In this document: piece after piece, positions 7,615-47,956 of the stretch
Layout of the letters: each line of letters starts with the position of its first letter
Numbering within the stretch: position 1 is the stretch's first letter
Sequence record: PP274704.1
DNA: 64,000 bases
Origin: Escherichia phage ECp13
Strand: one strand, 5' to 3'
Position numbers and translations under genes: made by a program
The notes under the pieces: model-generated
What the model saw: the letters and a program-made list of their open reading frames with translations, nothing else
Told to the model about the DNA's origin: nothing
Databases searched by the model: none

Positions 7615-7642
7615 TCACATTCTGTATATTACCATTCTAAGC

Positions 7643-7680
7643 TATCGTTCCCTTCTTATCGTTCCCTTCTTATCGTTCCC
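7643..7680 (+). repeat. tandem direct repeat, 14-bp unit TATCGTTCCCTTCT x 2.7
   Basis: copies at 7643-7656, 7657-7670, partial 7671-7680; intergenic. Confidence 0.9.
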
Positions 7681-7761: not shown

Positions 7762-7938
7762 ATGGTTGATAAAGAGATTAAAAGAGATCAGTATTATCGT
7801 GTTAACGGACATATTGTTATTGTTACAGCAGTAGATGATCTAGATGTTCATTATACTGTACTTAAATGGAATAAACAGATGATTTGCGATCGTGCTGTAT
7901 TTAGTTCAGTTGCTAAGGAAATTAAACTCCATGGGTAA
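7762..7938 (+). CDS. hypothetical protein, 58 aa (below ORF-track cutoff)
   Basis: ATG 7762 after GAGGA; hand-translated MVDKEIKRDQYYRVNGH... Confidence 0.4.
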   Translation: MVDKEIKRDQYYRVNGHIVIVTAVDDLDVHYTVLKWNKQMICDRAVFSSVAKEIKLHG

Positions 7939-28604: not shown

Positions 28605-29633
28605 ATGTCATCAATACCTTGGATTGATAATGAGTTTGCATACCGTGCATTAGCTCATTTACCTAAATTCACACAAGTAAATAATAGTTCAACTTTTAAA
28701 TTGCGGTTTAGATGCCCTGTTTGTGGAGATTCAAAAACCGACCAAAATAAAGCCCGTGGATGGTATTATGGTGATAATAATGAAGGAAATATTCATTGTT
28801 ATAACTGCAACTATCATGCACCAATCGGAATATATTTAAAGGAGTTTGAACCTGATTTATATCGTGAGTATATCTTTGAAATAAGAAAAGAAAAAGGTAA
28901 AAGTCGTCCAGTAGAAAAACCTAAAGAACTTCCTAAACAACCTGAGAAGAAAATAATTAAATCTCTTCCGTCATGCATTAGATTAGATAAACTGGCGGAA
29001 GACCATCCAATTATAAAATATGTAAAAGCTCGTTGTATTCCAAAGAATAAATGGAAATATCTTTGGTTTACAACCGAATGGCCTAAATTAGTTAATAGTA
29101 TAGCGCCAGGAACATATAAAAAGGAAATACCTGAGCCTCGTCTTGTTATTCCAATTTATAATGCTAACGGAAAAGCTGAGTCTTTTCAAGGACGTGCATT
29201 AAAGAAAGATGCTCCTCAAAAATATATCACCATCAAAGCTTATCCTGAGGCAACAAAAATTTATGGAGTTGAACGGGTTAAAGATGGTGATGTATATGTT
29301 CTAGAAGGACCTATAGATTCACTTTTTATTGAAAATGGTATAGCTATTACGGGCGGTCAATTAGACCTAGAAATTGTTCCATTTAAAGATAGACGTGTAT
29401 GGGTTTTAGATAATGAACCTCGTCATCCTGACACTATTAAACGAATGACTAAATTGGTCGATGCAGGAGAAAGGGTTATGTTTTGGGACAAATCTCCCTG
29501 GAAATCAAAAGATGTTAATGATATGATTAGAAAGGAAGGTGCAACCCCTAAACAAATTATGGAATATATGAAAAATAATATTGCCCAAGGGTTGATGGCT
29601 AAAATGCGGCTATCTAAATATGCTAAGATTTAA
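28605..29633 (+). CDS. 61: DNA primase gp61
   Basis: 342 aa; N-terminal Cys4 zinc ribbon CPVCGDS...CYNC; TOPRIM-like core. Confidence 0.9.
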   Translation: MSSIPWIDNEFAYRALAHLPKFTQVNNSSTFKLRFRCPVCGDSKTDQNKARGWYYGDNNEGNIHCYNCNYHAPIGIYLKEFEPDLYREYIFEIRKEKGKSRPVEKPKELPKQPEKKIIKSLPSCIRLDKLAEDHPIIKYVKARCIPKNKWKYLWFTTEWPKLVNSIAPGTYKKEIPEPRLVIPIYNANGKAESFQGRALKKDAPQKYITIKAYPEATKIYGVERVKDGDVYVLEGPIDSLFIENGIAITGGQLDLEIVPFKDRRVWVLDNEPRHPDTIKRMTKLVDAGERVMFWDKSPWKSKDVNDMIRKEGATPKQIMEYMKNNIAQGLMAKMRLSKYAKI

Positions 29634-29830
29634 ATTAACCCAACTAAAGCAAATGCTAAATCTACGAATGTATCAAGAGTAATTACTGGAATATTAACGC
29701 CATGAGCAATAGCAATTGGCGATAAAACAAAATTCCAGAGTAAAATTCCTACCATAGCAGAAATAGTAAAAGCTATACGTTTTTTATTACCTTTTATGGC
29801 ATTAACAAGTGCCATTAATTTTTGTACCAT
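29630..29830 (-). CDS. small membrane protein, 66 aa, antisense to flanking genes
   Basis: minus-strand ORF with AGGAGG 4 nt before ATG; two hydrophobic segments; stop overlaps gene 61 stop. Confidence 0.4.
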   Translation of the reverse strand: MVQKLMALVNAIKGNKKRIAFTISAMVGILLWNFVLSPIAIAHGVNIPVITLDTFVDLAFALVGLI

Positions 29831-29901: not shown

Positions 29902-30419
29902 ATGGCTTACTTTAATGAATGTAGTCAACTGATTGAAGGCGCTGATAAAGCTCAAAATGAATACTGGGATATTCTCGGCGATGAAAAAGACCCGCTGCAG
30001 GTTATGCTTGATATGCAGAAATCTCTGCAGGTTCGTTTAGCTAAAGATAAACCTGAATATAACCGTCATCCTGATGATTTGGCTACTGCAGGTGAAGTTG
30101 TTGATTGGCTGCGTAATCAGAAAGATTATATTGATGATGAATTCCGCGAACTTCTGACTTCTCTTGGTGGTATGAGCAATGGCGAAAAAGATGCATCTGC
30201 TGTATGGAAGCTTGGAAGTCGCAACACGGTGAACGTCGTGAAACTCTGATTACTGACTTATCTCCACAAGACCAGTTGGAAATTAAATTCGAAATGATTG
30301 ATATTCTTCATTTCGTTCTGAACATGTTCCAAGGTCTCGGTCTTACGGCTGAAGAAATCTTTAAACTTTATTATCTGAAAAATGCTGAAAACTTCGCTCG
30401 TCAAGACCGAGGTTATTAA
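29902..30419 (+). pseudogene. 56: dCTPase (dCTP pyrophosphatase, MazG-like) gp56 interrupted by an apparent 1-nt deletion
   Basis: N-terminal 116 codons in one frame (stop 30247-49), C-terminal conserved part in -1 frame from ~30204; joint length ~171 aa as in T4 gp56. Confidence 0.65.
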
Positions 30420-30491: not shown

Positions 30492-30737
30492 ATGGCTAGT
30501 ACTCGCGGTTATGTTAATATTAAAACATTTGAGCAGAAATTAGATGGAAATAAGAAAATTGAAGGAAAGGAAATTTCTGTAGCTTTCCCTCTTTATTCTG
30601 ACGTTCACAAAATTTCTGGTGCTCATTACCAGACATTCCCTTCAGAAAAAGCAGCATATACTACTGTATACGAAGAAAATCAACGTGATGCATGGATTGC
30701 TGCAAACGAAGATCTGTGGAAAGTAACTGGTGGTTAA
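30492..30737 (+). CDS. soc: small outer capsid protein Soc
   Basis: 81 aa; matches recalled T4 Soc; late promoter upstream. Confidence 0.85.
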   Translation: MASTRGYVNIKTFEQKLDGNKKIEGKEISVAFPLYSDVHKISGAHYQTFPSEKAAYTTVYEENQRDAWIAANEDLWKVTGG

Positions 30738-30836: not shown

Positions 30837-31049
30837 ATGTTAAATCGTTGGATTAAACCAAATGAAGACCTCCAGAAGGTTCTTGATAAAGCTATCTCTG
30901 ATAAATGGGGTATGAAAAGCTGGGATTGTGATATCGTCACGCATTCATTCATGATGCATGCAGATGGTTCAGTCGAGTTCAATGCTGAAATGCGATACAC
31001 TGACTGGGGTGGATTTCAAAGAGTCGAATTTCAAAGAGGCTTTTTGTAA
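30837..31049 (+). CDS. hypothetical protein, 70 aa
   Basis: ATG after AGAGGAGAG. Confidence 0.5.
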   Translation: MLNRWIKPNEDLQKVLDKAISDKWGMKSWDCDIVTHSFMMHADGSVEFNAEMRYTDWGGFQRVEFQRGFL

Positions 31050-31169
31050 TGTTTATCTTTAATTGGTTTAAAAGTTTCTTTACGGATTTTTTTCTCTACA
31101 ACTCCCGGAGAAGGTGTAGTTCCTATTTCAAATGACTACCTTCCTTTAACTGTAGTTGAATATGTTTAT

Positions 31170-31388
31170 ATGGGAGATGGAACAGTAGAAGCGGTTACTA
31201 TGACTTATGAAGAAGCCCAGGAATATTATAAAAATCCTTGGCGCTGGTCAACACCTACATCATCTAATGCGCAGAATACACAGTCTAGTTCTGATTCATA
31301 TGACACTAATGTTCCTGTTCATGTATGGACGGGCGATTCATGTGGAAGTTCTTGTGATTCTAGTTGTTCATCTACATCTTGTGATTGA
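31170..31388 (+). CDS. hypothetical protein with Cys/Ser-rich C-terminus, 72 aa
   Basis: C-terminal [17 protein letters not shown]; weak start context. Confidence 0.4.
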
Positions 31389-43748: not shown

Positions 43749-45925
43749 ATGATTATCACCACTGAAAAAGAAACAATTCTTGGTAATGGTTCTAAATCAA
43801 AAGCATTTAGCATCACAGCATCTCCTAAAGTATTCAAAATTCTGTCATCTGATTTGTATACAAACAAGATTCGCGCAGTAGTCCGTGAATTGATTACCAA
43901 CATGATTGATGCCCATGCTCTCAATGGAAATCCTGAAAAATTTATCATTCAAGTTCCAGGACGATTAGATCCGCGATTTGTTTGTCGAGATTTTGGTCCA
44001 GGTATGAGCGATTTTGATATTCAAGGTGATGATAATTCTCCTGGGTTGTATAATTCATACTTTAGTTCATCTAAGGCTGAATCTAACGATTTCATTGGTG
44101 GATTTGGTTTAGGTTCTAAATCTCCGTTTAGTTATACTGATACATTTAGTATTACTTCATATCATAAAGGCGAAATTCGTGGTTATGTAGCTTACATGGA
44201 TGGCGATGGTCCACAAATTAAACCTACATTTGTAAAAGAAATGGGTCCAGATGATAAAACTGGTATTGAAATCGTAGTTCCAGTTGAAGAAAAAGACTTT
44301 AGAAACTTTGCTTATGAAGTTTCTTATATCATGCGACCATTCAAAGATTTAGCTATCATTAATGGTCTTGACCGCGAAATTGATTATTTTCCGGATTTTG
44401 ATGACTATTACGGCGTAAATCCAGAAAGATACTGGCCAGATCGTGGTGGATTGTATGCTATCTATGGCGGTATTGTTTATCCTATCGATGGTGTTATTAG
44501 AGACCGTAACTGGTTAAGCATCCGTAATGAAGTGAATTACATTAAGTTTCCAATGGGTTCACTTGATATTGCTCCATCACGCGAAGCTCTTTCACTAGAT
44601 GATCGTACTCGTAAAAATATTATTGAGCGTGTTAAAGAGCTTAGTGAGAAGGCATTCAATGAAGATGTAAAACGATTTAAAGAATCTACATCTCCTCGTC
44701 ATACATACCGTGAATTGATGAAGATGGGATATTCTGCTCGAGATTATATGATTAGTAATTCAGTCAAATTTACGACTAAAAATCTGTCATATAAGAAGAT
44801 GCAAAGCATGTTTGAACCAGATAGTAAGCTATGCAATGCAGGAGTTGTGTATGAAGTAAATCTTGACCCTCGACTGAAACGCATTAAGCAAAGTCATGAA
44901 ACTTCAGCCGTTGCATCAAGTTATCGTCTGTTCGGTATTAATACAACAAAAATTAATATCGTTATTGATAATATTAAAAATCGCGTTAATATTGTCCGTG
45001 GATTAGCGCATGCGTTAGATGATAAAGAATTTAATAACACTTTAAATATTCATCACAACGAGCGTCTTCTGTTTATTAATCCGGAAGTAGAATCGCAGAT
45101 TGATTTACTCCCTGATATTATGGCAATGTTTGAAAGTGATGAAGTTAACTTCATCACTTGTCAGAAATTGAAGCTTTAGTTAAAAGTTATATTCCGAAGG
45201 CAGTTAAAAGTAAAGCTCCTCGTCCTAAAGCTGCTACTGCGTTTAAGTTTGAAATTAAAGACGGGCGCTGGGAAAAAGAGGAACTGTTTACACTTACGTC
45301 AGAAGCAGATGAAATTACTGGTTATGTAGCATACATGCATCGTTCTGATATTTTCTCTATGGATGGTACTACATCGCTCTGTAATCCGTCTACGAGTATT
45401 TTGACTCGTATGGCTAATCTTATTGGCATTAATGAATTTTATGTTATTCGTCCACTTTTGCAGAAAAAGGTAAAAGAACTTGGTCAGTGCCAATGTATTT
45501 TTGAAACTCTACGTGATTTATATGTAGATGCTTTTGATGATGTAGATTATGATAAGTATGTAGGTTATTCAAGTTCAGCTAAACGATATATTGATAAAAT
45601 TATCAAGTATCCTGAGTTAGATTTTATGATGAAGTACTTCAGTGTAGATGAAGTTTCCGAAGAATATACACGACTCGCTAATATGGTTAGTTCATTACAG
45701 GGTGTATATTTCAACTGTGGAAAAGATACCATCGGTCATGACATCTGGACAGTAACTAATCTTTTTGATGTATTATCAAACAATGCTTCAAAAAACAGTG
45801 ATAAAATGGTTACTGAGTTTACTAAGAAATTCCGTATTGTTTCCGACTTCATCGGTTATCGCAACTCTTTAAGTGATGATGAAGTTTCCCAAATCGCTAA
45901 AACTATGAAGGCCCTTGCGGCCTAA
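43749..45925 (+). pseudogene. rIIA: rIIA interrupted by an apparent 1-nt deletion
   Basis: 476-codon ORF (43749..45179) continues in -1 frame as 255-codon ORF (45158..45925); sum ~ rIIA length (~725 aa in T4); GHKL ATPase-like N-terminus. Confidence 0.65.
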
Positions 45926-47136: not shown

Positions 47137-47466
47137 ATGATTTATTGTATGAATATCGGTGATTCCGACATAAAAGAGATTAAACTGCACGGAAATCATC
47201 ATGCTAATATTGTGTACTGCAATAAATTTGAGTTTGGTCACGAAAAACTTGGGTTTCTTTACTGCAATGATATTATAGTCATGGATAAAAAGGAACTCGA
47301 TGAACTTGACCATGAGTCTTTAGATGAAAATGACCGAATTTATTACGGCACTCTTAAAGTATATAACGCTTATCTCAGCGGTAAAAAGGAAAGTCTAAAT
47401 GCAGAAAACGAATCCGGGTTTACAGAGACTATTTCAGATTCCGACATTTACCCTATCGAACAGTGA
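47137..47466 (+). CDS. hypothetical protein, 109 aa
   Basis: ORF after AAGGAAAAATT; 3' end overlaps next ORF by 68 nt. Confidence 0.45.
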   Translation: MIYCMNIGDSDIKEIKLHGNHHANIVYCNKFEFGHEKLGFLYCNDIIVMDKKELDELDHESLDENDRIYYGTLKVYNAYLSGKKESLNAENESGFTETISDSDIYPIEQ

Positions 47467-47956
47467 CTTGACTAGTGAAATGAAGGTCAAAATTGCTGAT
47501 ACAGCAAGATACTCTTTAAAACAAAATCCAAATCAGGATAAAGCAGAAGTTATTGAAAGATGTCGTATCGCGGTGTACGCAGAATTTTTTGTAGCAGATT
47601 GGCTAAGTGGGTATGTTAACAAAGGCCAAGAAGATGTTAATGACCCGTATACATATGCATGGGATGTATTGGCGCATCCAAGATACTGCGGGCTTCGTGT
47701 AGAAGTTAAGACACATCAAACTGACTCACGTTGGATTTCTGTAACAACAGGATGCAGCGGAGAGTATCCATATGGTTCTGGAATAAATCTAGGGCCCATT
47801 CTGAATCATCAGGTCGCTGACTGTATAATTATATTCAACACTAAAGAAATTCATCCAGGTGTCATCCAGTACACTCCGAAGTTCATTGGTGATAGAGAAG
47901 ACCTTCGTAAGGTTGTAAGAAAAAGCAACTACAACGGATGGTATCTTTCCATTTAA
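47399..47956 (+). CDS. denB: endonuclease IV (DenB-like)
   Basis: 185 aa as in T4 DenB; position after rIIB; start could instead be internal Met at 47480; name from position and length only. Confidence 0.55.
   Translation: MQKTNPGLQRLFQIPTFTLSNSDLTSEMKVKIADTARYSLKQNPNQDKAEVIERCRIAVYAEFFVADWLSGYVNKGQEDVNDPYTYAWDVLAHPRYCGLRVEVKTHQTDSRWISVTTGCSGEYPYGSGINLGPILNHQVADCIIIFNTKEIHPGVIQYTPKFIGDREDLRKVVRKSNYNGWYLSI

Follow-up and report, generated by a model that had tools for sequence, protein, structure and literature searches.

Does Escherichia phage ECp13 carry a broken gene 56, or is the break confined to the sequence on record? In the 64,000-nt stretch of PP274704.1 analysed here (hereafter the window), gene 56, which codes for a predicted dCTPase/dUTPase of the all-alpha NTP pyrophosphatase type, occupies positions 29902–30419 on the plus strand. 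It is read in two overlapping frames, and a single ORF of 172 codons is recovered if one C is restored. The dCTPase keeps cytosine out of phage DNA and averts self-destruction by the phage's own nucleases. If the break were real, a viable T-even phage with functional denB and without an intact gene 56 would contradict this long-standing rule of T4 nucleotide metabolism, and would indicate either a split enzyme or a back-up pathway. Overall, the split of gene 56 proves to be a correct observation but is probably not a biological feature.

Reading frames and the missing base at gene 56

The window is a segment of a Tequatrovirus (T4-like, pSs-1 group). Shigella phages sb3, Sfk20 and pSs-1 match it at 97–98% identity across tens of kilobases, and no record identical to it was found in the phage collection. 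Gene 56 is flanked by the primase gene (gene 61, 28605–29633) and by soc (30492–30737). On the minus strand at 29630–29830, a place that dam occupies in T4 (between genes 61 and 56), there is a hydrophobic-looking ORF of 66 aa; it has no Pfam match and is annotated as hypothetical in Sfk20, EC121, P922, pSs-1 and sb3.

The N-terminal ORF of gene 56 (29902–30249, plus strand) runs from ATG 29902 to TGA 30247–30249 and encodes 115 aa, which agrees with the 116 codons given in the earlier note once the stop is counted. The C-terminal ORF (30204–30419, plus strand) runs from ATG 30204 to TAA 30417–30419, encodes 71 aa and carries the conserved part DLSPQDQLEIKFEMIDILHFVLNMF...AEEIFKLYYLKN.... The ORFs and their translations bear out the earlier description of this part as lying in an offset frame that overlaps the N-terminal one: the two frames are one base apart and share the stretch 30204–30249. 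The N-terminal ORF is native up to K103 (30208–30210), after which come 12 out-of-frame codons (LGSRNTVNVVKL) and the TGA. The C-terminal ORF consists of M-E-A followed by native W105–Y172. The acidic metal-binding motifs of the gp56 family, ExxE and ExxExxD, are present and are shared out over both ORFs: the invariant residues D79, E80 and E83 of the DDEFRE motif sit in the N-terminal ORF, and E127, E131 and D134, also invariant, sit in the C-terminal one, together with the EIKFEMID motif and the Pfam dUTPase_2 match. In a Pfam search the 71-aa ORF matched PF08761 with 34.3 bits (cut-off 22.9), and the N-terminal ORF alone gave no match to PF08761.

Alignment of the whole window with sb3, Sfk20 and pSs-1 locates the lesion between 30211 and 30212 (plus strand), where one C of a CC pair is absent. 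Against GTATGGAAGCCTTGG in the relatives, the window has GTATGGAAGCTTGG; in codons, GTA TGG AAG CCT TGG AAG stands against GTATGGAAGCTTGGAAG, with AAG CCT TGG (K-P-W) at the break itself replaced by AAGCTTGG. The change from CC to C incidentally makes an AAGCTT site. Gene 56 is intact in Sfk20, EC121 and P922 (519 nt, 172 codons in each), and the sole gap between these genes and the window copy is the one C. The claim of the earlier note that the frame is broken by a single base is thus confirmed, as is its expectation that one added base would mend it. The proposed site (30214–30216) proved to be displaced, the actual position lying 2–4 nt upstream, and the protein recovered on restoring the C has 172 aa, matching the closest relatives, not the ~171 aa foreseen.

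Apart from the gap the gene is almost unchanged. A query of 621 nt from the gene 56 region is 99.2% identical to Sfk20 and 98.9% identical to EC121, in both of which the corresponding stretch has 622 nt. Since the 209 nt on the 3' side of the gap are 100% identical to Sfk20, no pseudogene decay is apparent.

We then compared the break with gene 56 sequences in public collections. Scans of viral, metagenome and genome contig collections gave no exact match to the junction sequence of the window, and exact-product look-ups did not find either of the two shortened gene 56 products among called genes on record. The best public match, 99.2% identical, has an intact gene 56. For IMG/VR the exact-junction scan is uninformative, because the intact Sfk20 junction is also unmatched there, relatives differing at neighbouring wobble positions. 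IMG/VR loci were collected by a protein-guided locus search, and all 42 of them encode gp56 in one frame (41 with 171–174 aa, and one in which the match begins at residue 39). The codon at the break site is intact in 42 of 42, being CCN in most and AAA in the T4-like ones. A two-cistron gene 56 in relatives, which the earlier note had named as evidence against a broken gene, was seen in none of the 42 loci and none of 175 protein hits. The window copy itself does not form one uninterrupted ORF of ~171–175 codons, since it consists of two ORFs one base offset.

Among the gp56 protein clusters listed, 117 of 120 have a length of 171–175 aa. The three short exceptions are P0042, a contig-end fragment of gp56; P0059, a protein of 157 aa from an ENA contig with a 15-residue in-frame internal deletion (TAGEVVDWLRNQKDY) that takes out part of the long helix preceding the DDEFRE motif; and P0077, discussed below. 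None of them is two-cistron, and we rejected these shortened proteins as a precedent for a split gene.

The break falls inside the motif SAVWK(P/K)WK, which is kept even in relatives that are 59–74% identical; K103, W105 and K106 are invariant in an alignment of 37 sequences. The most variable stretch of gp56, residues 107–120 (window ~30219–30262), lies directly after WK(P/K)WK and includes such versions as SQHGERRETLITD, ARYIEAQEKRIDE and ADHVKMQETY. Its polymorphism may be connected with the targeting of gene 56 by endonucleases.

Single-base indels elsewhere in the window and the origin of the break

The earlier note had also reported a second 1-nt break, in rIIA, and alignment confirms it at 45149–45150 (plus strand), where an A is lost (AACATTC to AACTTC). 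This deletion, private to the window and outside any homopolymer, splits rIIA (43749–45925) into 43749–45179 (476 aa) and 45158–45925 (255 aa), and a query of 401 nt across it corresponds to 402 nt in eight of the eight best relatives listed. Two substitutions lie near the deletion, the three closest relatives reading CATTATTTG and the window CATCACTTG. A third lesion affects an mrh.1-like ORF (31004–31388), in which the T run at 31087–31093 (plus strand) has 7 T in the window against 6 T in all 12 fetched relatives, T4 among them. This private 1-nt indel splits the ORF into 31004–31135 and 31050–31388. The same T7 allele was noted in one independent IMG/VR metagenome contig (L015, 2126–2145), so the run may be prone to natural slippage or to recurrent homopolymer error.

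Comparison of reference ORFs with the window thus shows that 1-nt indels interrupt three real genes, namely gene 56, rIIA and the mrh.1-like ORF. By the same test, no real gene of at least 100 aa is broken in sb3, Sfk20 or pSs-1 (~50 kb), where only spurious antisense ORFs are split. The placement of indels differs as well: three of the four private 1-nt indels of the window are inside genes, and sb3 and Sfk20 together have eight private short indels whose length is not a multiple of three, every one of them intergenic (Fisher estimate for this contrast, p ~0.02). Indels that are blind to coding sequence have the look of errors, or of mutations too recent for filtering. General sequence noise is not supported for substitutions, as 77% of the private substitutions of the window are synonymous, compared with 76–77% in each of the relatives. 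Private substitutions therefore behave like real divergence, and any error process would have to be confined to indels. Two longer length changes relative to sb3 and pSs-1, both of them multiples of three, were also seen: a 15-nt insertion at 7641–7673, in a tract of short direct repeats with units like CTTATCGTTCCCTT, and, at 7769, loss of the 6 nt TGGTTG. The view of the earlier note that the rIIA break makes sequencing error more likely but does not decide the matter is upheld, and the third break, in the mrh.1-like ORF, pushes further toward an artefact.

The genes that surround cytosine exclusion are in good order. As the earlier note had judged, denB and gene 42 are intact: denB (47399–47956) is full length and 98% identical to T4 DenB, and gene 42, the alpha-glucosyltransferase gene and a beta-alpha-type glucosyltransferase gene are all undamaged. 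The genes alc and denA lie outside the 64-kb window. In a T4 gene 56 mutant, stable DNA synthesis needs the loss of denB, and plaques need the loss of alc too (PMC1635256). Given intact denB, gene 42 and glucosyltransferase genes, a true gene 56 null in this denB+ background should, by the T4 literature, not be viable, which supports the earlier remark that a null would be unexpected here.

Taken together, these data make it likely that the split of gene 56 is an indel-type sequencing or assembly error in an ordinary T4-type gene. The error reading is favoured because only one base is missing from a gene that is otherwise nearly identical to its relatives and shows no sign of decay; because the allele is unique, gene 56 is intact in relatives and the break falls in a conserved motif; because three in-gene 1-nt indels occur here and none in sb3, Sfk20 or pSs-1; and because denB and gene 42 are intact and recoding signals are lacking (see below). 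One C of the CC pair at 30211/30212 would have been dropped in the deposited or assembled sequence, and we infer that the phage's physical genome does not carry the lesion. The real phage would then most likely make a single gp56 of 172 aa. This protein would hydrolyse dCTP/dCDP (and dUTP/dUDP), so that only hydroxymethyl-dCTP would enter DNA.

Several observations run against an error. Most platform errors fall in long homopolymers, and the CC-to-C change and the loss of a lone A, two of the three indels here, are outside such runs. The share of synonymous changes among private substitutions indicates that the sequence is otherwise of good quality. Moreover, rIIA and mrh.1 are dispensable, and both lesions there could be real; if they are, the argument that leads from three errors to a poor assembly is weakened. 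Mutants in rII are commonly enriched during laboratory propagation of T4.

A rival reading takes the frameshift to be real but recent, arising in the sequenced stock as a loss of function and not as an evolved feature. The genome would in that case belong to a defective variant complemented at high multiplicity, to a leaky mutant, or to a phage with compensation outside the window, such as in alc. We regard a recent frameshift as a possible but distinctly less probable origin of the break. It accommodates a substitution quality equal to that of relatives, two non-homopolymer deletions that are atypical of platform errors, an rIIA lesion that could be genuine given the enrichment of rII mutants in the laboratory, and the lack of decay beyond the break, in keeping with a very recent event. 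It is harder to reconcile with the intact denB, as a T4 gene 56 mutant with denB makes no stable DNA (PMC1635256), or with an allele found nowhere else, either in contig collections or among called gene products. In addition, a defective genome would have to dominate the consensus of the lysate.

Prospects for a functional enzyme from two frames

On a further reading the deletion would be real and the enzyme still made, either as two non-covalently associated chains or as a full-length chain produced by a -1 slip. Along the first route, residues 1–103 plus the out-of-frame tail would pair with a chain of M-E-A plus residues 105–172, re-initiated at AUG 30204. Along the second, tRNA-Lys would occasionally slip by -1 on GAAAAAG (30185–30191). 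We consider it very unlikely that the break is functional in either of these ways, and the evidence for each is set out here.

A shift of -1 anywhere in 30141–30249 would restore the gene 56 frame, the target frame being open from 30141. Within this stretch no slippery heptamer of the form X XXY YYZ occurs in the zero frame, and the only spot that permits -1 re-pairing of a tRNA is the AAA codon at 30187, inside GAAAAAG. No stimulatory RNA structure was detected around or downstream of the site: the native sequence folds with –19.9 kcal/mol (z-score +0.94), and 167 of 200 shuffled sequences fold at least as well. Nor was a frameshift arrangement seen in Sfk20, EC121, P922, the 42 IMG/VR loci or the listed protein clusters. 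We rejected programmed -1 frameshifting, as both the heptamer and the structure are missing.

Separate translation of the C-terminal ORF has in its favour an in-frame AUG at 30204, located 7 nt upstream of the deletion. No Shine-Dalgarno sequence precedes it in the 20 nt upstream (GAAAAAGATGCATCTGCTGT), and the stop of the N-terminal ORF at 30247 is 43 nt downstream. In overlapping genes of T4 re-initiation extends over roughly seven codons (PMC2988022), and ATG 30204, with the N-terminal stop 43 nt further on, is outside this range. Separate translation is disfavoured for lack of a Shine-Dalgarno sequence and survives only as a low-probability rival. A natural two-cistron enzyme gene would have its own ribosome-binding site or a start beside the upstream stop, and would be split in independent relatives; neither trait was found for gene 56 of the window.

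The position of the cut was assessed on the all-helical AlphaFold model of P0003, an intact homologue (mean pLDDT 86, pTM 0.80). A low-confidence loop at residues 91–106 connects helix 63–88, bearing DDEFRE, with helices 122–145, bearing EIKFEMID. The model predicts that the cut would fall at the end of this loop and not in a core helix, which counts in favour of a two-chain enzyme. Against this, the loop holds the invariant residues K96, A98, K103, W105 and K106, and no two-cistron or frameshifted arrangement exists at the site in 42 loci and 175 protein hits.

The broader proposition that a plaque-forming denB+ phage truly has the single-C allele in its genome, and would obtain gp56 from two chains or by -1 slippage or would exclude cytosine without gp56, is hardly credible.

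Homing endonucleases are recurrent neighbours of gene 56. In T4, segF (L008, 1107–1781) lies downstream and overlaps the 3' end of gene 56; in Killian (L051, 852–1502) and ECO07P1 (L052, 852–1502) an HNH gene is found immediately upstream; and JE01 and GRNsp7 show a similar two-piece gene 56 match with a 'homing endonuclease' annotation. The window has neither segF nor an HNH gene beside gene 56. SegF-type endonucleases cut gene 56 of phages that lack segF. Of all the explanations, a repair scar left at the target of such an enzyme is the most improbable: gene 56 is a documented target of T4 SegF (PMC2988022, Table 1; PMC2330249), homing endonuclease genes adjoin it in relatives and gp56 varies most in the stretch that directly follows the break, but breaks of the T4 type are repaired by recombination, which leaves conversion tracts instead of 1-nt scars, and an essential gene would still be inactivated.

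If, as we think likely, an indel-type error has split an ordinary gene 56, the practical lesson on present evidence concerns annotation quality. With at least three frames broken by 1 nt in 64 kb, caution is called for before gene 56, rIIA and the mrh.1-like ORF are described as pseudogenes or split genes.

Comparison with known systems

Gene 56 of the window occupies the same place, from the primase gene to soc, as its orthologues in T4 (gp56, NP_049646), Sfk20, EC121 and pSs-1, and shares with T4 gp56 orthologues the DDEFRE and EIKFEMID motifs and the PF08761 match. Relative to T4 gp56, the N-terminal fragment is 74% identical and the C-terminal ORF 66%, compared with 74% for the intact Sfk20 protein. 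The difference lies in the frame: the window has ORFs of 115 and 71 aa, whereas every relative examined at the break site has one ORF of 171–175 aa.

At the level of the fold, the model of the intact homologue resembles human and mouse DCTPP1/RS21-C6 in a Foldseek search (probability 0.99, TM 0.42 by query and 0.60 by target, with weak E-values). Deinococcus DR2231 and E. coli MazG are further best PDB matches, all through the helical bundle. All these matches are weak (E-values of at least 0.19, identity 9–19%), and a sequence search of the PDB with gp56 matched no chain. By the model, gp56 would differ from DCTPP1, DR2231 and MazG in an added N-terminal helix pair and in the long flexible loop 91–106.

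A truncated gene 56 is also present in Escherichia phage vB_EcoP_EP32B (OR544955.1, 156.7 kb), where a 'dCTP pyrophosphatase' of 104 aa (P0077) departs from the family after GGM of the same loop. This is not a 1-nt indel: the stretch from gene 56 to soc measures 171 nt in EP32B versus ~545 nt in the window, and its sequence is consistent with a deletion from codon 92 of gene 56 to the region upstream of soc. At the EP32B locus (L053, 1501–1961) gene 56 joins a late-promoter-like TATAAATA followed by a Shine-Dalgarno sequence, and soc ends at 47 aa. The EP32B truncation may reflect the true loss of part of an essential gene or a faulty assembly.

A further parallel is provided by the T4dC laboratory strains (42am, 56am, denB, alc), in which the gene 56 frame is lost, as it is in the window. 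These strains need mutations in denB and alc to form plaques (PMC1635256), whereas denB of the window is intact and 98% identical to that of T4.
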